Assembly: GCA_052327205.1 (NCBI GenBank)
Contig: CM126202.1
Coordinates: 165,292,001 to 165,356,000 of the forward strand
DNA from: Somniosus microcephalus
Taxonomy: Eukaryota
Reading direction: 5' to 3'
DNA length: 64,000 bases
This document shows positions 2,261-42,911 of the stretch, piece by piece. Within the stretch, counting starts at the first letter, position 1. Each line of letters starts with the position of its first letter. The notes beneath the pieces were generated by a model. The model was not told where the DNA came from. It saw nothing but the letters and a program-made list of their open reading frames with translations, and ran no database searches. The position numbers and the translations under genes were made by a program.

Positions 2261-4315
2261 ATGGAGAAGGCCAGGGAGAGAGCGCAGCGCTTCAGCGACG
2301 GTGACCTGAGGGTGCTGGTTGGCGGAGTGGAGCGCAGGTGCCATGTTTTGTACCCAGAAGGTGGCAAGAGGCCGCTGCCCAGCGCCTACCGGAAAGCCTG
2401 GAGGGAGGTGTCCAACAGGGTCTCTTCCAACAGCGTGGTTGCCAGGACTGCTGTGCAATGCTGCAAGAAGTTCAATGACCTCACTCGGGTTGTCAGGGTG
2501 AGTACCCTTTCCAGTGTCCTCCTCATCCTTGCATGTGCACCTCACATTATGGGCAAAGGGACCTGAAAGCCCTAATGGCCAGCCCTCATCCAGCAGCTAT
2601 GGGACTGGCATGAAAATCACTTGCACATTCAGCACTTTACACACTGTCCAAGCTATTCGACCATGGGAGGCAGTGCAGACAAGATCAGGGCTACACACTG
2701 TACAAGCTATTCGACCATGGGAGGCAGTGCAGACAAGATCAGGGCTACACACTGTACAAGATATTCGACCATGGGAGGCAGTGCAGACAAGATCAGGGCT
2801 ACACACTGTACTTAGAGGCCGTCCTTTCTCTTGCAGGCCAAGGTTGCGCACAACCGGCGCAACCAAACTGAGACCGGGGGAGGCCGTCCTGACATCAAAG
2901 AGCTCTCCGACCTCGACCAGCGTGTGGAGTGCATTATGGGAGGCCGGCTGATTGGCCCCGTCGCCACTGGAGATGCCGACCCTGTTCTGGGCACCAATGG
3001 TAAGGGCATGACCTTTTGGACCTCTCTCGTTCCACTTGTGCATCAGATCAGCATCCTTTGCCACTGTCCGACCAATGCGGTGAATGGCACCACTCATGCC
3101 TCCCTCGCTGCCGCCCTGTCCTCACTCTAAAGCTACTCTTGTGCCTTCCTGCTTTCAGATGGTGAATCACCAGGTGAGGAGGCGGGCCCTCAAGCTGCCA
3201 CTGTCAGCCCTTCGGAAGACGAGGAGGAGGAAGAGGAAGCCGGCCCATCAGTGCCACCCTCAGCCGCGCCAGCCCATGCCGATGTAGGGGACACGTCTTC
3301 CCTGGAGGGGAGCCGGGGGGAAGGGTCGGAGGAGAGTGAAGCTCCGGGGCCCAGCGGCCTGCAGCAACGCGGGAGGGGTGGGGAAGCTCGGCGGACTTCT
3401 CCCCAGAGGGTGAGTGTGGCCTCCAGTCCTGCGACAGTCAGCGCAGAGGAGGTGCGCCTCCTAGAGGAAATGGCCGTCCAGGCTGAGCGCAGGCACACTG
3501 AGCTCATGGCTGCAGTGGCAAGGATGCCTGACTCCGTAGAGTCACTGGCAAGGAGTGTGCAGGAATTCGGGTCAGCACAGGCCAGGAGTCTGCAACATTT
3601 CAGTGCAGCACAAGCCAGGAGTCTGGAACAATTCAATGCAGCACAGGCCAGGAGTGTGCAGGACATCAATGCAGCACAGGCCAGGAGTCTGGAACAATTC
3701 AATGCAGCACAGGCCAGGAGTCTGCAGGACATCGCGGCAGCACAGGCCACGAGTCTGCAGGACTTCACGGCAGCACAGTCGGCTTCTAGCCAAGTGCTCA
3801 GTCGTGCCGTCCATTCACTGGCTGGTGTATTGCGGACACAGACCAGGGCCACACGGGCACTAACTGCTGCCACCCTCGCTGGATCAGCCAGGCCTCGCCA
3901 GGGCACTCGCCGTGCAGCAGCAGCCCAGCAATCTGTCCTTCAGCTGGTTGCTGCGCATGCTGCACTGCTGGCCCGTGCGAGTGCCAATGTGTCAGGCGAC
4001 CAGCGAGCACCTGCGATCTGCCAGGTTGCCACCATTCCTGCAGCCGACACTGCCACTCCGCCATTGCAGCTGCCACGAGCTGCTGGACAGACTGCTGCCG
4101 CCCAGCCACAGTTGGAGCAGTCAGCAGCCGGCCACTCCAAGGCCAGAGCTGGTGCAGGCCGACCCCCAAGGGCATCTGCCGTCTCGCCAGCTGCCCCTCA
4201 GCAGCCTTCCCCCAGCCTTGCTGCAGCCACTGGGCTCCCATTGAGGAGGAGCAGCAGGGCGGGCAGGGGCCAGGCAAGGATGCGCAAGGCATCGCCCTCG
4301 CAGGGCAAAAAGTAG
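2261..4315 (+). CDS. Harbinger Myb/SANT-like DNA-binding protein, join(2261..2497,2837..2999,3159..4315), 518 aa
   Basis: MEKARERAQRFSDGDL...AWREVS...RTAVQCCKKFNDL trihelix signature; canonical GT-AG junctions (AGG|gtgagt, ttgcag|GCC, G|gtaagg, tttcag|AT) join into one open frame with the ETGGG motif, acidic run and helical repeat. Confidence 0.9.
2638..2811. repeat. 54-bp tandem repeat (~3.2 copies) in Myb intron 1
   Basis: Unit tacacactgt(c/a)caag(c/a)tattcgaccatgggaggcagtgcagacaagatcagggc starting at 2638, 2692, 2746, 2800. Confidence 0.95.
3550..3780 (+). repeat. 33-bp coding tandem repeat (11-aa units, ~7 copies)
   Basis: FxAAQARSLxx units in the Myb protein; nucleotide unit gcagcacaggccaggagtctggaacaattcaat. 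Confidence 0.9.
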
Positions 4316-4594: not shown

Positions 4595-5426
4595 TTGTTG
4601 TTGTTAAATTGCAGTGTGCATGGTTTTTTGGTTAAGTCCTGGTAGCCCTGCTTGGCGGAGGGCTTGTGGAGCGGCTACATTCATCTGCTGACATTGGCAC
4701 AAGCCAGTCCCTGAGAGGGGGCCTAGAACCGACGTTCAATAAGCCGGCGACGGGCGGCCCTTGCACTTTGTGCCTCCCTCCTGTGCTGGTCCTCCTCCTC
4801 CTCCTCCTCCTCCTCCTCCTCAGGTGGTCCTCCAATCTCTGGTGGCAGTGGCTGAGTCCTGCGGATAGCCAGGTTGTGCAGCATGCAGCAAACGACGATG
4901 AAATGGGAGACTCGCTCTGGCGAATACTGCAGTGCTCCCCCGGAACGATCGAGACAGCGGAACCATTGCTTCAGGACGCCGATTGTTTGTTCGATGATGT
5001 TCCTGGTCAATTGATGGCTCTCGTTGTATCGCTCTTCAGCAGGGGTGCTGGGCGCACAGAGCGGGGTCATCAGCCAGGTACACAAAGGATAGCCTTTGTC
5101 CCCGATAAGCCATCCTCGTGGGTGAGGCTGGGCCTGGAACATGTCTGCCACAGAAGTCTGTCGGAGGATGAAGGCATCGTGGCTGCTGCCTGGAAAGCGG
5201 GCATTGACAGCTAGGATGAGCTGCCTGTGGTCACACACCAGCTGTACGTTCAGCGAATGGTAGCCCTTCCAGTTGCGGTAATCCTCGGCATTCTCCAGAG
5301 GTGCCCGCAAAGCCACATGCGTACAGTCAATGGCGCCCTGCACCATGGGGAAGCCCGCGAATGCTGCAAAGCCCATTGCACGCTGTTGCTGCTTGGCAAG
5401 GGCCACGGAGAAGGAGATGAACTGAC

Positions 5427-5680
5427 TGTTGTGTATGTAACCGTTTACCTTTAAGGGAACTATAGAATGTAACCGTTCGCCTTTAAGAGCACTACTTTAG
5501 GGTGGCACTATTTATTGGCTCATGTATACTGTAATACCGATAGTGACCACACCAGTATATAAGGGTTGGAATACGTTAACTAGGGCAGAAATCGCCCAGA
5601 CCTCTGAATAGTAAAGACCTGTTTTGTTTGTACTTCTAAAGTCTCTGAAGTTATTTACTGCACAACCTACAGACTTTACA
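5427..5680 (+). repeat. 5' LTR of Gypsy A
   Basis: TGTTGTG...TTTACA, repeated at 10162-10415; contains TATATAA and AGTAAA. Confidence 0.96.
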
Positions 5681-5681
5681 G

Positions 5682-5691
5682 TGGCGACGAG
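5682..5691 (+). promoter_or_regulatory. Primer-binding site TGGCGACGAG (tRNA-Ser type)
   Basis: Directly after the 5' LTR; complementary to a tRNA 3' end ...CTCGTCG-CCA, as in vertebrate tRNA-Ser(GCU). Confidence 0.75.
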
Positions 5692-6524
5692 TCCGATCGT
5701 ACCCTGCGGCAAGACTAACCAGTAGCAGAGAGCTTCAAAAAGAAAACACGAGGCTCCGTCTACTAAAAGTATAGTACTTACTGGAAGCTGGAAGATTAAC
5801 AGCAAAGCTGCGGCAGCAACAGGCACAGATTACCCTGCTACCACATCTTGAGCGAGCCAATCAGCCTAAAACAAGGCGGCCGAAGAGACTGTGAGTAGTT
5901 AAAACAAATAAATTAAAAAAAAAAAAAAACGGGGTAGAAGTATTTGGAGGAGAAGGGCAAAGCATTCGGGTCCAACGGCGTCGGGTGACAGCCGGACCGC
6001 GGGCAATGTGAGAAGCCGTGCAGCAACCGCTGCCACGAAGCGCTGAGCCTGCGAGTAGGCGCGGGAGTGTCAGAGCCGAGAGCCGCGCGAGCGGGGGAGC
6101 CAGAGCCGAGCGGGAGGCGTTGCAAGCCAGCGATCGCATCTCCAGATAAGGGCCGAGAGCCGCGAGAGCGATCGGATCTACAGATAAGGGCCGGCAGCCG
6201 CTTCACGATCCAGCGATCGCATTATAGATAAGGGCCGCACTCGGGCTGACAGACGGCGTCGGGGGACCGGGTGAAGACCGCCAAGCGCGGGAAAACCGCC
6301 ATTGAAGTGGGCGGGGAGAGCGCGAAGCGCGGGAAAGCCGCCATTTTTCGGGGAAAACCGCTGAAGAAGAAGGAAGAAGCGGGAAACCGCCATCTTGGAA
6401 ATTATTAAGAATTTCAGAAAAGTAATAAGATTTTTCAGAAAGGCTGGTGTGTTCTCAAGAAGAGAAAAAAAAAAAAAATTAATAATAAGTAAAGAAATAC
6501 TTGTGTTGTTCTCGAGAAGAGAAG

Positions 6525-9500
6525 ATGCCTAAACGAGGTAATATCACCAAATGCTATCGTTGTGGGAAGTCAACACACGACCAAAAGCAATGCTGGGGTA
6601 AAAACCAGGAATGCTGGAAATGTGGCAAGATCGGGCACATAGCTAAAGTGTGCCGGTCAGGAACGACGTGCAACAATAATGAGTCCTCACAAAAATGGGA
6701 CAGAAAGGTACATGACGCAAATAGGAAGAGTCTGAAGGAACAGAAGTCGGACACACACGCCAAAGGCAGAGGACTGGACGGTCTAAGAATTCACAACGTG
6801 AGCAATGAAGCCGACCGTCAAACTATTTGGATAACGCTACCGATTGAAAAGGTCCCAGTAAAAATGGAAGTGGACACCGGATCGGCGTTGACGGTCATGA
6901 ATAAGCATGACTATCAAAAGTTTTTCAAGCATATTCCACTACGGAATGCGGATCTGATACTGAAGACATACACGGGGCAAAAAGTATTCCCCATCGGGAA
7001 GATAGAGGTCAAGGTGAAATACAAAGATAAAGTTCACCACCGGTTGGAGCTGTATGTGTTGTCTGAGGGAGGCCCACCACTTCTGGGACGGGAGTGGATC
7101 CGGAAAATAAAGATGGATTGGCATGCACTAAACACCATGACGGTGGAGCCCGAAAAAGAGGACGTCAAACCTGAACGGTTGGCCAGAATATTAGACGAAG
7201 CTAAAGAGGTATTCCAGCAAGGACTGGGAAAGCTACGAGGTATTAAAGCAAAGGTCAAGATTGCAGAACATGCAAGCCCAAAGTTTTGTAAGGCCAGGTC
7301 GGTACCGTATGCAATACGACCAGCAGTGGAGGCAGAACTAGAAGAACTTGAACGATCAGGGGTTCTGTCAAAAGTAGACCACAGTGAGTGGGCCACGGCC
7401 ATTGTACCTGTCATGAAATCCTCACCAAGTAGTAAGCCAGGGGGACCGGGGAAGGTCCGTATCTGCGGGGATTTCAAGATCACAGTGAACCCGATGCTTC
7501 AGTCGGTACAATACCCGCTGCCAAGGATTGAAGATATTTTCGCTTCGTTGGCTGGAGGAAAACACTTCACGAAGATAGACCTAGCTCAGGCATATTTACA
7601 GATGGAGGTTGAGGAAGAGTCACGCCAATACCTAACTATCAATACCCACAGAGGGTTGTACCGTTATAACAGACTGGTCTTTGGAGTGGCTTCGGCACCA
7701 GCAATTTGGCAGAGGGCCATGGAACAGGTGTTACAAGGAATTCCAAGCACGCAGTGCTATTTGGATGATATCCTAATCACGGGAATGGATGAAGAGGAAC
7801 ACCTCACGAATTTGAAACTGGTACTCACCAGGTTAAAGGAGTATGGCCTTAGGGTTAACCGCAATAAGTGTGAGTTTTTCCAAAAACGAATCTCATACTG
7901 CGGTCATATCATTGACCGCGAGGGACTACATAAATCACCGGAGAAGATAGAAGCAGTCGTGAAGGCTCCCGCTCCAGGGAACGTGTCACAGTTACGATCA
8001 TTCTTGGGGTTAATCAATTACTACCACAAGTTCCTACCAAATTTGTCCACGGTGCTGCATCCACTGAATGAGCTGTTGCGAAAGGAGACACCATGGAAGT
8101 GGAGTGAGGAGTGCAAAAAGGCTTTTCGCAGAAGCAAGGAGTTGATTACCTCTGAAGAAGTGTTGGCTCATTTCAACCCAGCATTACCCCTTCGGCTGGC
8201 GTGTGATGCTTCACCGTACGGAATTGGAGCAGTACTTTCGCACAGGCTACCAAATGGCTCGGAAAGGCCAGTGGCTTTTGCGTCCCGATCTTTGACACCC
8301 GCGGAGCGAAATTACGCCCAGATAGACAGGGAGGCCCTCAGTCTTGTGTGGGGCGTGAAGAAATTCAACCATTACTTGCAATGTAAGAGGTTCACATTGC
8401 TGACAGACCACCAGCCGTTGGTGTCCATATTTAACCCGAACAAGGCTGTGTCCAACATGACAGCACAAAGGCTACAAAGATGGTCAGTCTTACTTGGGGC
8501 ACACCAGTATGATATTGAATACAAACGGTCCAAGCAACATGGAAACGCTGATGGGCTATCACGCTTACCATTGCCAATGGTAGAAGAAGCGAGGACAGTA
8601 GACCCAGTAGAGTTGTTCCACTCATCAATAGTGGAGTGTTTGCCGATCACGAACTCAATGATCGAAAATGAGACAAGGAATGACCCGACTCTTTCACGAG
8701 TCTATGACTTAACGGTGGAGGGATGGCCAGCGCAGTGCGAACCAACACTGCAAGCATTCGCACAGAGGAAAGCACAACTGTCTGTGTGTCGAGGAACCCT
8801 GATGTGTGGGTCTAGAGTGGTGATTCCACCCAAACTCCAAAAGAAAATACTCAAGGAGCTGCACGAAGGACACCTGGGGGGCGTAAAGATGAAGAACCTA
8901 GCTAGGGCGTTTGTGTGGTGGCCAGGCATCGATGGGGACATAGAGGAGATAACGAAGAATTGCCTAGGATGTCAGAGGGTTCAGAACGTGCCACCACAGG
9001 CTCCTCTGCACCCATGGGAGTGGCCCTCATCTCCCTGGCAAAGAGTACACATCGACTTTGCGGGGCCTTTCATGGACTCGATGTTCTTAATAGCGGTAGA
9101 TGCCCACTCCAAGTGGCCGGAAGTAATTAAGATGACCACCACCACGACGGAAAAAACCATTACGGTGCTAAGGACAATGTTTGCGCGGAATGGTCTGCCA
9201 GAACAGGTCTGTTCCGATAATGGGCCGCAATTTGTGTCTGAGGAATTTAAGAAATTTCTAAAAAGCAATGGGGTTAAACATTACACATCAGCCCCATACC
9301 ATCCCGCCTCCAATGGACTGGCTGAAAGATTTGTCCAGACCTTCAAGAAGGCCATAAAGGCCATGAGTAATGAAGACATAAGTTTACAGCATAAGGTGGA
9401 TAGCTTTTTGTTGGCCTATCGAAATGCAACACATGCGGTCACGAATCAAACTCCCGCAATGATGTTTTGCAATAGACGCCTAAGATGCCGGCTGGATTTG

Positions 9501-9950
9501 CTCAAACCAAACGTAAGAAGGGACGTAGAGAACCGGCAATTCCAGGGCATGAATGAAAGGGCCACCAGATCTTTCCAGATGGGGCAACAAGTTTTGGCCC
9601 GGGACTACCGTACGGAGAAATGGCAGCCTGGAACTATTAAAAAAAGGCTAGGACCGTTGATGTACACGGTGGACATTGGGGACAAGGTAATAAGGCGCCA
9701 TGTTGACCAGATCATAGGGTCCGCCACAAATGAGCAGCCGACTTCACCACCTTACCCGAGTAATGTTGAAACTGAAGTACCCAGAACACCTACTTCTGAT
9801 CTAGTAATACTAGAATCAGATAAACCTGACACTGTTGTTCCAGCTGAATCGACTTTACCAGAGACACCTACTGGACCGCTGGGAATGACGACACCACTGC
9901 GGCGTTATCCGGACAGAATCCGGAAACCTCCACAGAGACTGAACCTGTAA
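6525..9950 (+). CDS. Gypsy polyprotein: 2 CCHC knuckles, protease, RT, RNase H, integrase (no capsid)
   Basis: Single open frame from ATG 6525: CYRCGKSTHDQKQC, CWKCGKIGHIAKVC, VDTGS, YLDD, CDASPYG, HEGH...CLGC, HIDFAGP, SDNGPQF, NGLAERFV. Confidence 0.95.
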   Translation: MPKRGNITKCYRCGKSTHDQKQCWGKNQECWKCGKIGHIAKVCRSGTTCNNNESSQKWDRKVHDANRKSLKEQKSDTHAKGRGLDGLRIHNVSNEADRQTIWITLPIEKVPVKMEVDTGSALTVMNKHDYQKFFKHIPLRNADLILKTYTGQKVFPIGKIEVKVKYKDKVHHRLELYVLSEGGPPLLGREWIRKIKMDWHALNTMTVEPEKEDVKPERLARILDEAKEVFQQGLGKLRGIKAKVKIAEHASPKFCKARSVPYAIRPAVEAELEELERSGVLSKVDHSEWATAIVPVMKSSPSSKPGGPGKVRICGDFKITVNPMLQSVQYPLPRIEDIFASLAGGKHFTKIDLAQAYLQMEVEEESRQYLTINTHRGLYRYNRLVFGVASAPAIWQRAMEQVLQGIPSTQCYLDDILITGMDEEEHLTNLKLVLTRLKEYGLRVNRNKCEFFQKRISYCGHIIDREGLHKSPEKIEAVVKAPAPGNVSQLRSFLGLINYYHKFLPNLSTVLHPLNELLRKETPWKWSEECKKAFRRSKELITSEEVLAHFNPALPLRLACDASPYGIGAVLSHRLPNGSERPVAFASRSLTPAERNYAQIDREALSLVWGVKKFNHYLQCKRFTLLTDHQPLVSIFNPNKAVSNMTAQRLQRWSVLLGAHQYDIEYKRSKQHGNADGLSRLPLPMVEEARTVDPVELFHSSIVECLPITNSMIENETRNDPTLSRVYDLTVEGWPAQCEPTLQAFAQRKAQLSVCRGTLMCGSRVVIPPKLQKKILKELHEGHLGGVKMKNLARAFVWWPGIDGDIEEITKNCLGCQRVQNVPPQAPLHPWEWPSSPWQRVHIDFAGPFMDSMFLIAVDAHSKWPEVIKMTTTTTEKTITVLRTMFARNGLPEQVCSDNGPQFVSEEFKKFLKSNGVKHYTSAPYHPASNGLAERFVQTFKKAIKAMSNEDISLQHKVDSFLLAYRNATHAVTNQTPAMMFCNRRLRCRLDLLKPNVRRDVENRQFQGMNERATRSFQMGQQVLARDYRTEKWQPGTIKKRLGPLMYTVDIGDKVIRRHVDQIIGSATNEQPTSPPYPSNVETEVPRTPTSDLVILESDKPDTVVPAESTLPETPTGPLGMTTPLRRYPDRIRKPPQRLNL

Positions 9951-10148
9951 ACTGTTTCCACTAAGAGTATGTTGCAACTGTTCCTACGGAGACTGAATCT
10001 GTGATCTGTTTTGACATGAAGTTATATATGTTATTATGTTATGTTAAACATGAAGTTATATGACGTTGACTCCATCGAGAGTATATCTGCAAACTGTCTA
10101 TATAAGTTGAAGATTGTATGTTTAACGGGATTCTGTAAGTAATAAGCT

Positions 10149-10161
10149 AGAAAGGGAGGAG
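10149..10161 (+). promoter_or_regulatory. Polypurine tract of Gypsy A
   Basis: AGAAAGGGAGGAG immediately before the 3' LTR. Confidence 0.85.
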
Positions 10162-10415
10162 TGTTGTGTATGTAACCGTTTACCTTTAAGGGAACTATAG
10201 AATGTAACCGTTCGCCTTTAAGAGCACTACTTTAGGGTGGCACTATTTATTGGCTCATGTATACTGTAATACCGATAGTGACCACACCAGTATATAAGGG
10301 TTGGAATACGTTAACTAGGGCAGAAATCGCCCAGACCTCTGAATAGTAAAGACCTGTTTTGTTTGTACTTCTAAAGTCTCTGAAGTTATTTACTGCACAA
10401 CCTACAGACTTTACA
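10162..10415 (+). repeat. 3' LTR of Gypsy A
   Basis: Matches 5427-5680; followed by TSD CTGAC. Confidence 0.96.
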
Positions 10416-11014
10416 CTGACGTCTCCTTTTGAAAAGGGCATTGGTCACCTGGCGGATGCAGCAATGCACGGCGAACTGGGAGATGTTGGCAATGTCGCCA
10501 GTAGCAGCTTGGAAGGAGCCGGTGGCATAAAAGTTGAGAGCCACCGTCACCTTCACTGCCACCGACAGAGACGTCCTGCACCTCAGCTGTGGCTGCAGAT
10601 CACCGGCAAGCAGCTGGCAGATCTCTGTGACGACGTCCCTTCTGAATCGCAGCCTCCGAACACACTGCTCCTCAGACATCTGGAGATAGGAGAACTGCTG
10701 GCGGTATACCCTGGGTGGGTAAGGCCTCCTTTGCCGACGCCTGTTGCCCCCTCTCCGTCTAGCCAGGGCTGCCAGTCTCTCATGGCGTCTCTGAGCCCTT
10801 TGGATGTAATTGAGAAAGCCAGCGTTTACACCCATTGCAGCCCCCATAATATGCTGGCAAACAATGAGATGTCAATGAAGGCAAAAACTTTTTGAAATCT
10901 GTGGCCTGAAGCCAGAAGTACCTGTCCGAGTGTTGGGCCAAAGCAGAAAGCTATCTACCTTGGTCTCTCTCCAAAGATCCGTTTCGCAAGAAGGTGTGCT
11001 GCAAAATGGCAGCG

Positions 11015-16717: not shown

Positions 16718-19700
16718 ACATAGAAACATAGAAACATAGAGATAGGAACAGGAGTAGGCCATTCGGCCCTTCGAGCCTGCTCCGCCATTCAATGAGATCA
16801 TGGCTGATCTTCGTCTGAGATCATAGCTGATCTTACCAGTTCAGTACCCCGTCCCCGCCTTTTCTCCGTAACCCTTAATCCCCTTAGCCTTCAGAAATAT
16901 ATCCAATTCTCTCTTGAAAATATTTATTGAATTAGCCTTCACAGCCCTCTGTGGCAGGGAATTCCACAGGCTCACCACTCTTTGAGTGAAGAAATTCTTC
17001 CTCATCTCTGTTTTAAATGATTTGCCCACTATTTTTAGACTGTGGCCCCTGGTTCTGTGCTCCCCGGTGATTGGTAACATTCTCTCTGAATTCAGCCTGT
17101 CCAGGCCTGCCATAATTTTATATGTTTCGATGAGATCCCCTCTCAATCTTCTAAACTCCAGTGAGTACAAGCCCAAACTATTTAATCTCTCTTCGTAGGT
17201 CATTCCCGCCATTCCAGGTATCAGCCTGGTGAATCGCCGTTGCACTCTTTCCATGGCAAGAACATCCTTCCGCAGATGGGGCGACCAAAACTGTACACAA
17301 TACTCCAGATGCGGTCTCACCAGCACCTTGTACAGCTGTAGTAAGGTATCCCTATTCCTATACTCGAACCCCCTTGATATGAAGGCCAACATACCATTTG
17401 CCTTCTTAATCGCCTGTTGCACCTGCATGCTCTCCTTCAGTGACTGGTGCACAAGAACACCCAGGTCCCTCTGCACTTCCCCATCTCCCAATCTATTGCC
17501 ATTTAGATAATAATCTACCCTCCTGTTTTTACCCCCAAAGTGGATAACCTCGCATTTATCCACATTATAGTGCATCTGCCACATATCCGCCCATTCCCCC
17601 AACCTGTCCAAATCGCACTGTAGCCTCCTGACATCCTTATCAGAGCCCACCCCTCCTCCTAGTTTAGTGTCGTCAGCGAATTTGGAAATATTGCATCCAA
17701 TTCCCTGATCCAGATCATTTATATATATTGTGAACAGCTGGGGTCCCAGGACAGATCCTTGCGGCACCCCGCTGGTCACTGCCTGCCACTCCGAAAACGA
17801 GCCGTTTATTCCAACTCTCTGTTTTCTATCCGCCAGCCAGTTCTCTATCCACGTTAATACTTTGCCCCCAATCCCATGAGCCTTAATTTTGCATGATAAT
17901 CTTTTGTGTGGAACCTTATCGAAGGCTTTCTGGAAGTCAAGGTACACCACATCCACTGGCTCTCCCCCATCTATTTTACCAGTTACTTCCTCAAAAAATT
18001 CCAGCAGATTAGTCAAACACGATTTACCCTTTGTAAATCCATGTTGACTCTGTCCGATCCTTTCCCCATTTGTCAAGTGCTCCGCTATTTTATCCTTAAT
18101 AATGGACTCTAGCATTTTGCCCACAACCGATGTAAGGCTTACTGGTCTATAATTCCCTGCTTTCTCTCTACCCCCCTTTTTAAATATTGGGGTAACATTA
18201 GCTACCCTCCAATCCACGGGTACTGTTCCCGAGTCAATGGAGTTCCGGAAGATGATCCTTAGAGCATCTGCTATCTCCAGGGCCACCTCCTTAAGTACCC
18301 TAGGATGTAGTTTATCAGGCCCCGGGGATTTGTCGGCCTTCAGTCCCCTCAACTTACCCAACACCATATCCCTAGAGATACTAATTTCTGTCAGCTCCTC
18401 CCTCTCATTAGTCCCTATGTTTGCCGATATTCCTGGGAGGTTATTTGTGTCCTCCTTTGTGAATACAGAACCAAAGTATGAGTTTAATTGGTCTGCCATT
18501 TCCTTATTCTCCATTATATATTCTCCCGAATTGGACTGCAAGGGACCGACTTGGGATTTTACCAGTCTTTTCCTCCTGATATACCGATAAAAGCTTTTGC
18601 AGTCTGTCTTTATGTTTGCTGCAAGTTTACTTTCGTATTCTATTTTCCCCTTCCTGATTAATCCCTTTGTCCTCTTTTGCTGTATCCTGTACTGCCCCCA
18701 ATCTTCCGGTCTGGTGCTTTTTTTTGCCAGTTGATATGCCCTTTTTTTTGATTTTATGCTGTCCCTAATTTCCCTCGTTATCCACGGTTGAGTCACCTTT
18801 TTAGGTTTATTTTTATGCCAAACCGGTATAAACATGTTCTGGAATTCTTCCATTCTATCTTTGAATGCTTGCCATTGTCTATCCACTGTCAATCCCCCCA
18901 GAAACACCACCCAATCAATCTTACCCAATTCCCGTCTCATACCCTCGTAATTCCCTTTATTTAAGTTCTGGACCTTAGTCTCTGATTCAATTTCCTCACT
19001 CTCCATCTCGACTGAGAGCTCGATCATATTATGATCGCTCTGACCCAAGGGGCCTCGTACAAGAAGATTGCTGATAAGTCCCTTCTCATTGCACAATACC
19101 CAGTCTAAAATGGCCTGATCTCGAGTCGGCTCCTCGACATATTGGTCCAGATAACCGTCCCGAAAACATTCCAGGAATTCCTCCTCCTCAGAATTTTTAC
19201 TAATTTGGGTAGTCCAATCAATATGTACATTAAAGTCACCCATGATGACAGCTGTGCTCTTATCGCACGCTTCTCTAATTTCCCTTTTTATGCCTTCCCT
19301 CACCTCCATATTACTATTTGGAGGCCTATATATCACACCCACTAACGTTTTCCTCCCCTTGCTATTTCTCATTTCTACCCATACAGATTCCGTTTCATCC
19401 GAGTTAATATCCTTCCTTTCCATTGCATTAATCCCCTCCTTTACCAGCAATGCTACCCCACCTCCCCTACCTTTTTGCCGATCCTTCCTAAATATTGTAT
19501 ATCCCTGGATGTTAAGTTCCCAGCCTTGCCCACCCTGCAGCCACGTTTCTGTAATCCCAATCAAATCATACTTGTTTACCTCTATTTCCACAACTAATTC
19601 ATCCACCTTGTTCCTAATGCTTCTAGCATTAAGATACAAAGCCTTCAGGCTTGCTTTTTTCACACTCTCATTATGAATTAGTTTGGCCCTTTGTGTTTCT

Positions 19701-19793
19701 CTCCTTTGCTTATTGCTTCTCACCTTTCTACCATCTATTTCTGACTTCATATGACTTCCCTCTTTTCCACTACCTAGGTTCCCATCCCCCTGC
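16718..19793 (-). mobile_element. CR1 LINE, 5'-truncated, young
   Basis: (GAAACATA)n tail; 7-bp TSD CAAAGAA (16711-16717, 19794-19800); intact ORF2. Confidence 0.95.
16841..19750 (-). CDS. CR1 ORF2: APE endonuclease + reverse transcriptase (969 aa)
   Basis: YLNARS, GITETW, GDFN, SDH; [31 protein letters not shown]; no stops or frameshifts. Confidence 0.95.
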   Translation of the reverse strand: MKSEIDGRKVRSNKQRRETQRAKLIHNESVKKASLKALYLNARSIRNKVDELVVEIEVNKYDLIGITETWLQGGQGWELNIQGYTIFRKDRQKGRGGGVALLVKEGINAMERKDINSDETESVWVEMRNSKGRKTLVGVIYRPPNSNMEVREGIKREIREACDKSTAVIMGDFNVHIDWTTQISKNSEEEEFLECFRDGYLDQYVEEPTRDQAILDWVLCNEKGLISNLLVRGPLGQSDHNMIELSVEMESEEIESETKVQNLNKGNYEGMRRELGKIDWVVFLGGLTVDRQWQAFKDRMEEFQNMFIPVWHKNKPKKVTQPWITREIRDSIKSKKRAYQLAKKSTRPEDWGQYRIQQKRTKGLIRKGKIEYESKLAANIKTDCKSFYRYIRRKRLVKSQVGPLQSNSGEYIMENKEMADQLNSYFGSVFTKEDTNNLPGISANIGTNEREELTEISISRDMVLGKLRGLKADKSPGPDKLHPRVLKEVALEIADALRIIFRNSIDSGTVPVDWRVANVTPIFKKGGREKAGNYRPVSLTSVVGKMLESIIKDKIAEHLTNGERIGQSQHGFTKGKSCLTNLLEFFEEVTGKIDGGEPVDVVYLDFQKAFDKVPHKRLSCKIKAHGIGGKVLTWIENWLADRKQRVGINGSFSEWQAVTSGVPQGSVLGPQLFTIYINDLDQGIGCNISKFADDTKLGGGVGSDKDVRRLQCDLDRLGEWADMWQMHYNVDKCEVIHFGGKNRRVDYYLNGNRLGDGEVQRDLGVLVHQSLKESMQVQQAIKKANGMLAFISRGFEYRNRDTLLQLYKVLVRPHLEYCVQFWSPHLRKDVLAMERVQRRFTRLIPGMAGMTYEERLNSLGLYSLEFRRLRGDLIETYKIMAGLDRLNSERMLPITGEHRTRGHSLKIVGKSFKTEMRKNFFTQRVVSLWNSLPQRAVKANSINIFKRELDIFLKAKGIKGYGEKAGTGY

Positions 19794-19855: not shown

Positions 19856-21436
19856 TGTGGCAGAGCCACCAAGGGACTCTTATATCGATGTACATAATTA
19901 TCTGTAACAGAATGAATCTGTACCTGTATTCGTTTTACTACATGTAAATAGCGCGGTCTCTAAAGGGTTAAGACCAAACACGATGACGTCACCACGTGGG
20001 TCACATGACGTTCCCAATGGCGGGAAACGTGATGACGTCATGACGTCAGAGGGAGGAGCCCTCTCTCTCAGTCCTCATGGAGCCAGCATTGAGCATAGAC
20101 CTATTTGTTAGTTCTCCTGCATTTGATTGTTACTTCTGCAAAACAGTATTAAACTTAGTTTAGTTAACAGACTGACTCGATCTCAGTCTTTTGATTAGGA
20201 ACCTGCCAATTCCTACAGTGGTGACCCCGAACTTTCGCGTACGATCTTCGCGGAGGAAGCGACGTGCAACGAGATGATGGAAGCGAACGCGGTGGCTTTG
20301 AAGCTCCCTCAGTTCTGGGAACAACAGGCGGCCTCCTGGTTCATGCAAGCGGAAGCTCAGTTTTAACTGCGAAACATCGTGGCGGATCAGACCCGTTACC
20401 TCTACGTGGTCTCTGCACTCGACGGCTCCACGGCTTCAAGGATCATCAACCTGCTTGAAAACCCCCCGGTCGACGGCAAGTACGAAATGCTAAAAGCACG
20501 GTTAATTCAGGTTTTCGGCCTCACGAAGGCGGAACGTGCACGCCGTTTACTTACGCTGCCCGGGTTAGGCGACTCCAAGCCATCGGAGTTGATGTGCCAG
20601 ATGCTCACACTCCTTGGCTCCGAACCGCAATGCTTCCTCTTTCGGGAGTTGTTTTTGAGCCAATTGCCCGAGCAGGTGCAGGCAGCCCTTGCAAGATCGG
20701 ATGCTACGGATTGCGTCGTACTTGCCGCTGAGGCGGACACCATTTATGCGGTCACGCAGCAGTACTGCGCCGCCACGAGGCGACCCCCCCTTGCGGATTC
20801 TGCCCCGACGCATCCATCGCCCGGCTTGTGCTTTTACCACGCCCGTTTTGGCGCGAGAGCCAGATGCTGCTGGCATCCCTGCAGTTTCACGCCTCAACCG
20901 AAGAAAAGACACCAGCGCCAAGTCTGGGAAAGGCAGCCCGAGCCTGAGGGATGTCCCACGGCCGCGATGGTGATCAGCGATTCCGGGAATATAGGAGTTG
21001 TTCGAACAGACTTGTCCGACCTCCTCTTCGATTGACTTTCACTGTTAAAGACAATTCTGGGGGGGGGGGGCGCATATGGCAGAGCCACCAAGGGACTCTT
21101 ATATCGATGTACATAATTATCTGTAACAGAATGAATCTGTACCTGTATTTGTTTTACTACATGTAAATAGCGTGGTCTCTAAAGGATTAAGACCAAACGT
21201 GATGACGTCACTACGTGGGTCACGTGACGTTCCCAACGGTGGGAAACATGATGATGTTATGACATCAGAGGGAGGAGCCCTCTCTCTCAGTCCTCGTGGA
21301 GCCAGCATTGAGCATAGACCTGTTTATTAGTTCTCCTGCGTTTGATTGTTACTTCTGCAAAACAGTATTAAACTTAGTTTAGTTAACAGACTGACTCGAT
21401 CTCAGTCTTTTCATTAGGAACCTGACAATTCCTACA
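19856..21436 (+). mobile_element. Non-autonomous gag-only LTR retrotransposon (Gypsy-type gag)
   Basis: 362-bp LTRs 19856-20217 and 21075-21436 (~20 differences by eye); 4-bp TSD TAGT; PBS TGGTGACCCCGA (tRNA-Trp type) at 20219; poly-G PPT; 857-bp internal region. Confidence 0.92.
20274..21035 (+). pseudogene. gag (KLPQFW...WF.Q.EAQF N-domain, CFYH..FG...C...C motif) with one premature stop
   Basis: ATG 20274, in-frame TAA at 20364-20366, frame continues into the 20379-21035 ORF; no protease, RT or integrase follows. Confidence 0.8.
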
Positions 21437-37790: not shown

Positions 37791-40700
37791 TGTAGTGTAT
37801 GTGCTTTAAGTCAGAACTACTTTTTACAGCTCCTGTATACTGTAGTACCAGCAGTAACCACACTGGTATATAAGCTGTGCGAATGCCTCTGTACTCCAGT
37901 CCAGAGATGACCTTCCTCCAGTAAAGACCTGTTGTTTGTTTATATACAGCATCCGTGTAATTCTTTATCCACTGAACCACGGATCTAACAGTGGCGACGA
38001 GTGTTGATGCGAATCTACCTGCAACATTAAACAAAAAAATAAATAAATAGTCGAGTCCAGGAACACGGGCGTCGACCGCGAGCAACCGCCCAGCAGTCAG
38101 GCAGAGATCCAACTTCGCTGGGGAGGCTGTGGAGGGTCGGGCTTGGTTCCCCAGCCACAACAAGCAGTAAGAGACCAACGGCAGGTCCAGAGCAGACCCT
38201 TCCCGAGCAGCGGCGGCTGGAGCCGACCAACGGCAGACAGAGAGAGCCGGGCAGCGTCGACGGGATAAGAAAGAGGGTGAAGAGAGCAGGGCGCAGCCGG
38301 GGATTGATCACCGAGCGGCGTCGAGGAAAAATACTGCAAACCGGAGAGAGAGAGGGTAAGAAACAGCCGGGTTCTAGATTGAGCGGCATCGACAAATATC
38401 AAGAGAAGAACGCGCAGAGCACAGCCAGGGATCACGGGCTGATCAGGGTCCGCGGGGTGCAGCAAGGGGAGATGCCATTGAGCCGCGGAGAAGCAGGGAG
38501 AGTGCGGGAGGCGCCATTGAGCCGCGGAGAAGGAGGAAGAGCGCAGGAGATGCCATTTTGCGAAGCCGCAGCGGAGAAGACGGGCGAGCGCGGGAAGGAA
38601 GAAAAGTGCAGGAGACGCCATTTTGTGCCAGCGGAGAAGAAGGGGAAGTGCGGGAGGTGCCATTGGGGATAGTTAACGCACAACCAAGGATGCCGAAGAG
38701 TGGCAGTATCTCTACGTTCGACAATGAAGTCGAAGATTGGGCGACATATGTGGAATGTATTGAGGTGTACTGCAGGGCGAATGAAGTGCCAGATGCTAAT
38801 AAAGCACTGGTTATGTTAAATTACATGGGTGCAAAAAACTTATGGGTTACTGCGAAATCTAATAACCCCAGAGAAGCCGGTAAACAAGGATTTTGGAAGC
38901 ATAGTAGAAATCCTACAGGACCACTTAAGCCCCACACCGCTGCTGATAGCAGAATGATTTAAGTTCCATAAAAGGAACCAACACAAAGACAAAAGCAATG
39001 CTGAGTACCTAACGGAACTGCGCAAGCTATCGAAATACTGCCAGTTTGGAGCGGGACTAGCAGACACGTTAAGGGACAAGTTTGTGTGTGGGCTACAAAG
39101 TGAAGGAACCCAGAAATGGCTTCTATCAGAAAAGGACCTTACGCTGAACAAAGCTTTCAATATGGCAGTATCACACGAAGCAGCCACAAGGGGCGCTGCA
39201 GAGATACAACGGAGACCGCAAGAATACGGCACCAACGAAATGACCTATGGAACAGGGAAGTGCTATCGCTGCGGCAGAACAACACATCACCAGAAAGATT
39301 GTTGGTTCAAGGGCCAAGTGTGCAGACACTGTGGGAAAGCAGGACACATAGCAAGAGTCTGCAGGTCTGGGAAGAAAACCAACAGTAAGAAATCTCCACA
39401 GGAGAAGTACAAAAAGGTACACCAGGTGATGGACAGTGGTTCAGACGAACAGAAGAGTGACACAGACTCCGGAAGCAAGGAGCTGGGTTGTCTGAAACTA
39501 CATAATGTAACCGAAATAGAGGATCACCCGACTATCTGGGTTACACTCAAGATAGACGGAGTCCAAGTGGAAAAGGAATTGGACACGGATCAGCTCTAAC
39601 AGTCATAAATCAAAGAGACTACAAGCGGCTATTTTCACACATACCCTTGAAAGCTACAGAGATTGTCTTGAAGACGCATACGGGGCAAAAAGTCTACCCC
39701 AAAGGAAAAATAAGGGTGAAAGTGACATATAAAGGTCAGGAAATACCTAAAATGGATATATATGTATTGCCAAATGGAGGACCACCACTGCTAGGACGTG
39801 AGTGGATCCGGAAGATACATTTAGCTTGGCATTCCATACAGGCTGAAGGTGGAGGCCAAAAAGGATGACGACGTCACACCTGGACGACTGTCAAAAATGC
39901 TAACTGACGCAAAAGAAGTGTTCCAGGAGGGACTAGGAACACTAAAAGGAATAACAGCAACAATTAAAATAGAGGTTAATGCAAGCCCAAAGTTTCTGAA
40001 GGCCTTATGCGATCAGACCAGCGGTGGAAACAGAGCTGGAAGGGTTGGAATGTTCAGGAGTACTGTCCAAAGTGGACTGGAGCGAGTGGGCTACACCCAT
40101 CATCCCTGTAATGAAGAGGTCGTTGAGTAATACGCCTGGGGAACCAAAGAAGGTCCGCATCTGTGGGGATTTTAAGGTGACAGTGAACCCAGTCCTTCAC
40201 ACGGTGCAATATCCGCTTCCACGAATTGAGGATATTTTCGCCTCGCTATCTGGTGGTAAACGCTTCACCAAAATTGATCTAGCCCAGGTGTACTTGCAAA
40301 TGGAGGTAGAAGAAGCTTCGAAACATTACCTTACGATCAACACCCATAAAGGTCTCTATCAATACAACCGGCTGGTGTTTGGAGTAGCCTCGGCTCCGGC
40401 TATCTGGCAAAGGGCGATGGATCAGGTCCTGCAAGGGATTCCAGGGACCCAGTGTTATTTGGACGACATCTTGCTCACGGGCGAAAATGACGGTGATCAC
40501 CTCGCTAACTTGGAGAAGGTGCTCGCTAGATTAAAGGAATATGGGCTATGAGCTAATCGCCACAGGTGCGAGTTTTTCCAGAAACAGATCTCGTATTGCG
40601 GCCACGTCATTGATGAAGAGGGGTTACATAAGTCCCCTGACAAGATTGAGGCAGTAGTCAAGGCTCCAGCACCGGAAAATGTGTCACAACTGAGGTCATT

Positions 40701-42911
40701 GCTCGGGCTGATAAACTATTTCCACAAGTTCTTACCAAATTTGTCTACGGTGCTACACCAGCTGAACACCCTACTGCAAACAGGGGTACCATGGGAGTGG
40801 GATGAAGAACGTAGATGAGCTTTCCAGAAGTGTAAAGAATTGATCACATCAAAAGAGGTGTTGGCCCATTTCAACCCAGCACTATCAATTCGTTTGGCAT
40901 GTGATGCATCACCCTACGGCATTGGAGCGGTGCTGTCGCACAAATTCCCAGACGGGTTGGAGAGGCCAGTGGCCTTTGCGTCTCGGTCACTAACCTCAGC
41001 CGAGCGCAACTACGCCCAGATTGACAGGGAGACCCTCAGCCTAGTATGGGGAGTAAAAAAATTCAACCATTATCTGCATGGGCAGAAGTTGCCTTGCTGA
41101 CTGACCACCAACCACTTGTCTCCATCTTTAATCCTAAGAAGGGCATGCCAGTAATGACTGCACAGCGGTTACAAAGATGGTCCCTGTTTCTAGGGGCGAA
41201 TCAATATGAAATAGAATATAAAGGCACGAAACAGCATGGGAATGCTGATGGGCTATCGCGCCTGCCACTGCCTACAGTGGAGGAAGCACCAGCAGTGGAA
41301 CCTATCGAGATATTTCATTCATCGATAATTGAACGATTGCCAGTAACAAACGCGGATATAGAGAAGGAGACCCGCAATGATCCGACGCTGCCATGGGTAT
41401 ATGAATTGACGATGAGGGGATGGCCAACACATGGCGACTCACTGTTGCCAGCATTCTCATCCAGAAGAGAACAGCTGTCAGTATGCCAGGGGACAGTGAT
41501 GTGTGGATCCAGAGTGGTGATTCCACCCAAGTTAAGGGAGAGAGTGCTAAAGGAGCTACATGAAGGTCATCTGGGGGGAGTGAAAATGAAAAGCCTTGCT
41601 AGGGCTTATGTGTGGTGGCCGGGAATCGATCAACAAATCGAAGATCTAACTAAGAGCTGCTTAGGATGCCAGAAGTTCCAAAATGCACCACCACATGCTC
41701 CTCTACACCCATGGGAGTGGCTGTCCGCTCCATGGCAACGGGTGCATATTGATTTCGCTGGTCCATTCATGGACTCAATGTTCTTAACAGCAGTGGATGC
41801 TCATTCAAAGTGGCCTGAGGTGATAAAAATGTCTTCAACCACTACAGAGGAAACGATTGCAGTCCAAGGAACCATATTTGCCAAAAATGGTTTGCCAGAG
41901 CAGATTTGCTCTGATAATGGACCAAAGTTTGTGTCCGACGAGTTCCAAAAATTCATGAAAAGGAATGGGGTAAGGCATTACACATCCGCCCCGTATCATC
42001 CAGCCACCAATGGATTGGCTGAGAGGTTCGTACAAACCTTTAAGAAGGCGATAAAGGCCATGTGCAACACGGAAATTCCACTACAGCATAAGATGGACAA
42101 TTTCTTATTAGCCTACCGAAACGCGACACATGCAGTTACCAACCAGACCCCGGCCATGATGTTCTTTAACCGAAGGTTGAGATCTCGTCTGGACTTGCTC
42201 AGACCAAATGTGCGAAGAAATGTTGAGGACAAACAATTCCAGCACATCAACGAGAAGCCGACAAGGAGCTTCAATGTAGGGCAACCAGTCTTGGCCCGTG
42301 ACTATCAAACAGAGAAGTGGCAACCCGGAACGATATGTACAAGGCAGGGGCCATTAATGTACACAGTGGATGTCGGGGAGAACATTGTGAGACACCACGT
42401 CGATCAGATCTTAGCGTCACAGGAAGGCGTCAACCCCATGTCTCGAGTACCTGGGGATGAACCCGACATACCGGTAGCATCTACTTCAGACCCAGTAGCA
42501 GTGGAACCCGATGAACTACCCGATGAAAAGGGGTCAGAATTGCCTCTGCACCAAGAACAAGAACCTCTGGAAAGGCGCTATCCCGAAAGAGTCAGGAAGC
42601 CGCCCCAAAGACTGAATCTGTAAATGGACTTTTTGTTATTGAATGTACATGTAAAAATGTAATTGTTATTTGAATATTAAGGGGGTATTATTAATCTAAA
42701 AAGGGAGGAATTGTAGTGTATGTGCTTTAAGTCAGAACTACTTTTTACAGCTCCTGTATACTGTAGTACCGGCAGTAACCACACCGGTATATAAGCTGTG
42801 CGCATGCCTCTGTACTCCAGTCTAGAGATGACCCTCCTCCAGTAAAGACCTGTTGTTTGTTTATATACAGCATCCGTGTAATTCTTTATCCACTGAACCA
42901 CGGATCTAACA
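37791..42911 (+). mobile_element. Ty3/Gypsy LTR retrotransposon (Mag-like), full structure, decayed (Gypsy B)
   Basis: 200-bp LTRs 37791-37990 and 42712-42911 (5 differences by eye); 5-bp TSD ACATT; PBS TGGCGACGAG 37992-38001; PPT 42698-42710. Confidence 0.96.
38690..42623 (+). pseudogene. gag-pol of Gypsy B (capsid, 2 CCHC, PR, RT, RH, INT) with stops and frameshifts
   Basis: MPKSGSISTFDNEVEDWATYVE..., RDKFVCGL..., DTG, YLDD, HIDFAGP; colinear with 6525-9950; broken into several ORFs. Confidence 0.93.

Follow-up and report, generated by a model that had tools for sequence, protein, structure and literature searches.

Most non-autonomous LTR retrotransposons drop their enzymes. The Ty3/Gypsy element described here, located at positions 5427-10415 (+ strand) of the window, the 64,000-nt stretch of the Somniosus microcephalus genome that we analysed, drops only its shell and keeps nucleocapsid (NC) and Pol in frame. 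The locus therefore raises the question of whether such an element is a damaged copy or a member of a family that spreads without a capsid of its own and, in the latter case, of how it does so. A capsid-less NC-Pol element provides a natural test case for asking which functions of LTR retrotransposons work in cis, and domain-based annotation would score elements of this kind as intact.

A recent insertion with an intact pol

The element has all the hallmarks of Ty3/Gypsy elements: LTRs bounded by TG and CA, a target site duplication (TSD), a PBS, a PPT and the pol order PR-RT-RH-INT. Its two 254-nt LTRs (5' LTR 5427-5680, with a TATA-like box at 5556 and AGTAAA at 5610; 3' LTR 10162-10415; both on the + strand) are identical at 254 of 254 nt, which sets a 95% upper bound of 1.2% on their divergence, and they are flanked by the 5-bp TSD CTGAC (5422-5426 and 10416-10420). 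The PBS, TGGCGACGAG (5682-5691, +), is of a type that we take to be tRNA-Ser; the 64-kb window contains no tRNA gene with which to compare it. It is followed by a long non-coding leader (5692-6524, +), likely to contain a packaging signal, in which the only upstream ATG opens a frame of 1 codon and no + strand stop-free stretch exceeds 80 codons. The 13-nt PPT (10149-10161, +) lies directly before the 3' LTR. LTR identity and the intact PBS, PPT and TSD had already been reported in the first-pass annotation and are borne out here.

Between leader and PPT, a single ORF (6525-9950, +) encodes 1141 amino acids. It opens with the native gag start MPKRGNI (6525-6545), seven codons that form the left edge of the capsid deletion, and continues from the right edge of the deletion into the nucleocapsid (6546-6653), which has two CCHC knuckles (aa 10-23 and 30-43). 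Only 27 nt separate the ATG from the first Cys codon, confirming the earlier reading of MPKRGNIT running straight into KCYRC. The aspartic protease (6837-7103, DTGS at aa 117), the reverse transcriptase (7446-7913, YLDD at aa 412), the RNase H region (8100-8495, defined by Pfam) and the integrase zinc finger and core (8823-9305, likewise) follow on the + strand, and the frame stops at 9950. Pfam recognises zf-CCHC (weakly, E 0.0024), protease, RVT_1, RNase H, integrase H2C2 and rve in this ORF, and finds no match to any gag family. All catalytic motifs (DTGS, YLDD, DAS, HH-CC and D-D-E) are present, and knuckles and enzymes are open, as the first inspection had suggested.

Two details of this region deserve mention in their own right. 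In the second knuckle, the residue after the first Cys (6615-6617) is Trp, where most relatives from the run sequences have Arg; among 24 double-knuckle proteins, Trp occupies this position in one, that of the element itself. In retroviral NC, aromatic residues at this position stack against bases of the RNA. In addition, codons 4-6 contain a splice-donor-like AG/GTAATA (6535-6542), and the joints listed for the RNA run X13 include none there.

The insertion interrupts a Harbinger-type DDE transposase gene on the - strand (4723-10847, in two parts, 4723-5426 and 10416-10847; DDE_Tnp_4, E 1.4e-37). When the empty site is rebuilt by taking out the element and one TSD copy, the 376-codon transposase frame is open, which argues both that the insertion is recent and that the element boundaries are right. 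LTR identity, TSD and intact empty site together show a recent integrase-type insertion. The transposase of the surrounding Harbinger-type transposon (3470-4315 and 4723-10847) is otherwise intact; a convergent ORF nearby, with 11-residue repeats and no Pfam match, may be the second gene of this transposon.

What the missing segment encodes

No capsid remnant was detected in the element: tblastn searches with six capsid-bearing N-termini were significant only at another Gypsy element of the window (element B, below), and a capsid profile of 175 positions, made from 11 of the homologues, had a coverage of 0. A capsid hidden in the leader or in another frame was rejected, tblastn, profile and frame checks all being empty. 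The element does not encode the two-domain capsid that characterizes autonomous Ty3/Gypsy elements.

The homologues indicate what is gone. The best full-length ones, K02A2.6-like single-ORF Gypsy elements of fishes and invertebrates, share 59-61% identity with the whole ORF, and skate homologues share 59-66%. The first knuckle begins at residue 194-225 in 13 whole-length homologues (those that passed a length and pattern filter out of 45 matches). Among 162 homologues, 141 bear knuckles and 126 of these 141 cover at least 140 of the 175 positions of the capsid profile; the other 15 mostly begin within the capsid or the linker, and two have partial internal gaps. In none of the 141 is a native start fused to NC. 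A knuckle lies within 45 residues of the start in 31 of 138 representatives, which appear to be fragments, come without genomic context and are therefore uninformative.

The N-terminal segment of the homologues matches Retrotrans_gag clusters (score 0.97, with the family on 37% of the members) and has a predicted all-helical fold (pLDDT 89). The structures most similar to this fold are without exception capsids, namely those of dArc1, PNMA2, Arc, MLV, Copia, HIV and Ty3, at a best Foldseek E of 0.002 and with none at E <= 0.001. Compared by sequence with solved structures, the capsid profile gives weak matches only (dArc1, E 0.07). Judging from these comparisons, the lost segment is in all probability the whole capsid, about 185 codons, removed in frame. 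The in-frame loss proposed in the first-pass annotation thus agrees with an open ORF of 1141 residues from which the capsid of ~185 residues seen in relatives is absent. The junction falls after codon 7 (at 6545/6546, to within a few bases), where relatives' reads and contigs diverge from the window; the deletion ends two residues before the first knuckle, and none of the enzymes is truncated.

Element B (37791-42911, +) belongs to a related but decayed Gypsy family with a capsid, and its LTRs differ at 5 of ~200 places. Its start peptide resembles MPKRGNI, and the earlier description of its gag at 38690, with 571 nt from the start to the first Cys and a capsid in between, stands; this gag is nevertheless frameshifted and has stops. 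Since its similarity to the capsid-less element is no more than 71% internally and 69% over 184 nt spanning the LTR, element B is best regarded as a cousin from a different family. It was rejected as parent or helper because of its different LTR and broken ORF.

Two further retroelements were noted in the window. A gag-only LTR element of 1.6 kb (19856-21436) has 360-nt LTRs that are 94% alike over 300 nt, a 4-bp TSD (TAGT) and the PBS TGGTGACCCCG; its gag is DUF7041-like with an early stop, giving a TR-GAG-like structure whose LTR is unlike that of the capsid-less element. On the minus strand, an open 969-aa ORF (16841-19750), presumably of CR1 type, reads like a LINE endonuclease-RT and has decayed relatives elsewhere in the window.

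A multi-copy family rather than a local accident

Of 14 sequencing runs listed, four were compared with the element (X1, X2, X4 and X13, leaving aside X3, X5-X12 and X14). X1 (organism A) and X2 (organism B) are DNA runs from one study, X4 (organism C) comes from another study and X13 is RNA. The junction is present in both runs of the first study. The X1 contig (6520-6598, depth 2,178.6) is identical to the window and extends 26-29 letters to the left of the junction, below the 31-letter threshold. The X2 contig (6507-6630, depth 1,082.2) has no substitution and a 3-nt insertion in the leader, and exceeds this threshold with at least 39 letters to the left and more than 80 to the right.

These depths are close to those of the window alleles at 6818, 6841 and 6856 (2,208 in X1 and 1,148.5 in X2); from the depth ratios, the junction accounts for 99% (X1) and 94% (X2) of the window-type NC-PR block. 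By contrast, the flank allele of the window at 5406 reaches a depth of 78 in X1 and is absent from X2 (depth 0); the 7494 allele stands at 966 in X1 versus 35 in X2. Junction depth is thus ~28-31 times that of the rarest alleles (5406 in X1, 7494 in X2). If these alleles are taken to represent one locus, there would be about 28-31 junction copies, a rough figure since depth is not copy number and single-copy depth is uncalibrated; the lowest depths listed (13-16) would, as a single-locus measure, allow severalfold more. The capsid-less junction is multi-copy and shared by many copies, as measured by contig depth rather than by separate loci. Multi-copy depth in two DNA runs, with the junction also read in other samples, excludes both an assembly error and a deletion confined to this one copy, and so the two outcomes that the first-pass annotation had set against its own reading, a unique junction and an assembly collapse, did not materialize.

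The depths of the 5406 allele also disfavour amplification within the Harbinger flank, and with it passive spread inside that transposon. The 7494 allele depths and the 3-nt leader indel distinguish sub-lineages between X1 and X2, which suggests repeated, serial copying after the deletion. X4 shows pol alleles of the window type at depths of 66-87 and nothing listed at 6526-6545, and its contigs diverge from the window where the ORF starts. This run is also without window alleles at 8 other listed sites present in X1, holes being common in this run; either a filtered record or a capsid-complete sister is possible. Our verdict is that the element represents a real, multi-copy, recently mobile family.

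The region 6500-6900 may be a mosaic. Upstream of 6507, the contig that spans the junction in X2 departs from the window sequence, and the leader end in X4 is identical to the window and then gives way to other sequence, a pattern that suggests recombination with co-packaged relatives.

Relatives, likely helpers and the origin of the deletion

Each of the four runs contains contigs or reads that match the leader end and then diverge from the window at the ATG, and in X1, X2 and X13 other sequences join the window just before the first knuckle. The extra stretch that these relatives have between start and NC is most likely the capsid, of which the ends are seen and the remainder is deduced from the homologues. 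Sequences that share the leader and diverge at the start codon may come from a capsid-bearing partner with common cis sequences, and are seen here as partial matches. At the leader start, depths reach 5,773 in X1 (contig 5689-5898) and 3,212 in X2 (5708-5881), so depth over the initial 210 nt of the leader is 2.6-3 times that at the junction. This means that sister elements share these 210 nt exactly; they are common to about 1.6-2 times as much further sister-element sequence.

Both the capsid-less form and its relatives are transcribed. In the portion of X13 compared (24% of the run), ~6 reads lie over 6526-6545, counted by coverage and not by per-read bridging; without exception they have the orientation that in most stranded libraries denotes sense RNA. 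In the same run, 29 reads exit the window at the start codon, and another 312 come in from different sequence ahead of NC, which suggests that likely capsid donors are transcribed more than the capsid-less form.

How the capsid was lost can be narrowed down. The possibility raised earlier that the deletion ends match GT-AG did not hold up: at both junction edges, the relatives read neither GT nor AG, and the deleted stretch is therefore no canonical intron. On this basis, an origin by retrocopying of spliced RNA was rejected, the true parent not being among the sequences seen, and a template switch during reverse transcription appears likelier than splicing.

Selection on pol

Among the 36 best-supported differences between the ORF and its relatives (641 others exist besides), 21 are synonymous versus 22.6% expected by chance, in counts that mix all branches and are not specific to the capsid-less one. 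In the NC stretch, 10 of the 28 listed differences are synonymous, and those listed at the knuckle Cys/His codons are silent. This synonymous excess fits selection inside the capsid-less clade, and does not show it. Should pol selection persist in that clade, Pol or NC would be cis-acting and the capsid a shared good, and Pol would have to enter particles without CA-CA contact. Vertebrate LTR elements are known to be under strong purifying selection, and cis-preference is not established for them (PMC7070016, PMC13558583).

How a capsid-less element might spread

Ty1 and Ty3 reverse-transcribe inside Gag particles (PMC4974528), so a capsid-less element would need the shell of another, a need that this analogy makes well supported. 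On balance, we consider it probable that the element belongs to a multi-copy Ty3/Gypsy subfamily that lost its capsid in frame and spreads in the capsids of relatives, helped by its own NC-Pol. The shared leader would act as the packaging signal read by the helper Gag, and the element RNA would be translated to NC-PR-RT-RH-IN. Devoid of CA, this NC-Pol could not join the lattice via CA-CA contact; it may instead enter the particle bound to its own RNA through NC, much like foamy-virus Pol on its genome. Such cis help by its own NC-Pol would explain why the deletion that was amplified preserves the frame and ends just before the first knuckle. The combination of own NC-Pol and borrowed capsids, first put forward from the bare sequence, gains support from the multi-copy junction and from likely capsid-bearing relatives that share the leader end and are transcribed.

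A single-ORF helper makes one Pol per capsid and could therefore supply everything. The element might then be a pure passenger that borrows capsid, RT and integrase alike, its ORF being intact through a recent burst, recombination with co-packaged helper RNA or avoidance of nonsense-mediated decay. We regard this as a serious but distinctly less likely explanation. It is consistent with the identical LTRs and the nearly invariant contigs of the subfamily, and yeast Ty1 and Ty3 elements without most of their internal sequence (mini-Ty) are described as moving wholly in trans (PMC4974528). Moreover, window-identical RT pieces in X2 are deeper (1,819-1,981) than the junction (1,082); pol is thus partly shared with other elements, and these deeper contigs could mean its renewal by recombination. 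Against a passenger speak the retention of all catalytic motifs over 1141 codons, the synonymous nature of the changes listed at knuckle Cys/His codons, and a deletion that takes the capsid and spares NC. The junction copies also occur under two organism labels and in separate sub-lineages, which makes the family older than one burst.

The capsid-less element might alternatively give NC-Pol while gag-only, pol-less families of the same genome give most of the particle. In X1, NC-like sequence is far deeper than the leader end (summed depths of about 330,000 and 25,000), which speaks for such an arrangement, and in Papaver, GAG-PROT-only, GAG-less and complete Retand sublineages are reported side by side (PMC12582370). 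Nevertheless, sequence comparisons of the LTR, the leader, the NC-PR DNA and the gag of element B with other annotated windows gave no look-alike. Related pol is abundant and transcribed, so that there are probably complete helpers able to supply either half, and we think the arrangement improbable. The broader idea of a retrotransposon split into cooperating halves, capsid-less NC-Pol and gag-only shells, which would amount to a naturally occurring vertebrate LTR element of two components, is to our mind only slightly less doubtful.

A one-off event, whether a post-insertion deletion at the locus, an assembly error or the passive duplication of one dead copy, is very unlikely: the run contigs reveal no second TSD or insertion site and the listed X4 contigs lack the junction, but elsewhere the depth of the junction exceeds that of rare alleles as described above and equals that of the whole window-type block, and the junction is present in a sample without the 5406 flank allele. 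Finally, replication independent of any capsid, with NC-Pol alone organising reverse transcription and integration, is scarcely credible even for an element with all enzymes and NC intact, given the Gag particles of Ty1 and Ty3, the presence and expression of likely capsid donors and the retention of the capsid in most homologues.

Comparison with known systems

The borrowed-shell design that we favour can be set against several known elements. The K02A2.6-like single-ORF Gypsy elements have the same double knuckle and domain order as the shark element but about 185-215 extra N-terminal capsid residues. We take them to be Mag-like, which would place the shark element in the Mag lineage. Mag elements are described as having short LTRs, a 5-bp TSD, a tRNA-Ser or Leu PBS and one or two ORFs, and the LTR length, TSD and single ORF of the shark element fit the corresponding table, in a comparison by description and not by tree (PMC3286476); the presumed PBS type would fit as well.

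Foamy viruses offer a model for the entry of capsid-free Pol, as their Pol is packaged via genomic RNA (PMC7828637). The likeness is a working analogy only, since foamy viruses have Gag on the same genome and express Pol from a spliced RNA, unlike the shark element. In mouse IAP 1-delta-1, an in-frame internal deletion also created a fusion protein, which acts in cis in an element that is non-autonomous and yet successful (PMC6466679). However, both gag and pol are partly deleted in IAP 1-delta-1 and have to be provided in trans, whereas the shark element lost the capsid only and keeps all of pol.

Two plant systems come closer. GAG-less Retand elements of Papaver, also Ty3/Gypsy, form Group II sublineages with a physically shorter 5' region and have GAG-only sister groups (PMC12582370). 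GAG is also missing in 7 of 63 recently active Retand clusters, such as Alopecurus myosuroides 7, with 13-180 copies (PMC11963269). Such elements share with ours the Gypsy affiliation, multiple copies, recent activity and the absence of GAG with PR, RH and INT kept; they are, however, a plant lineage, and the available descriptions do not state a kept NC or an in-frame start fusion. BARE-2, a Copia element of barley, has its RNA packaged in BARE-1 particles (PMC4350172, PMC3735527). Like the shark element, it makes no capsid, keeps pol and is transcribed, and it moves with the Gag of a relative; an intact pol and the production of RNA are seen here in the open ORF and the few X13 reads over the junction stretch. 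In BARE-2, a deletion of 8 bp removed the start codon of gag, and translation begins at a later ATG, whereas the shark element keeps its native start. In the latter, ~185 codons were excised and the start was fused to a kept nucleocapsid, in an animal Gypsy rather than a plant Copia element. Membership in BARE-2 proper was rejected in view of the Gypsy order and the retained gag start codon; by analogy, the shark element probably works like BARE-2 without being a member.

The literature searched, mostly open-access and with Repbase outside its scope, contained no animal case of a gag-less, pol-keeping LTR family and, within the same incomplete coverage, no precedent for NC fused to a native start; nor did a direct precedent appear in PMC5738225, PMC13570524, PMC13270711, PMC3315495 and bioRxiv 2024.09.13.612906. 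The claim that the element reverses the usual non-autonomous design therefore holds for the element itself, but the reversal is not unprecedented, as BARE-2 and GAG-less Retand attest in plants. The gag-less, pol-keeping design is known from plants; what is different here is the animal host and the clean excision of the capsid alone, with NC kept.
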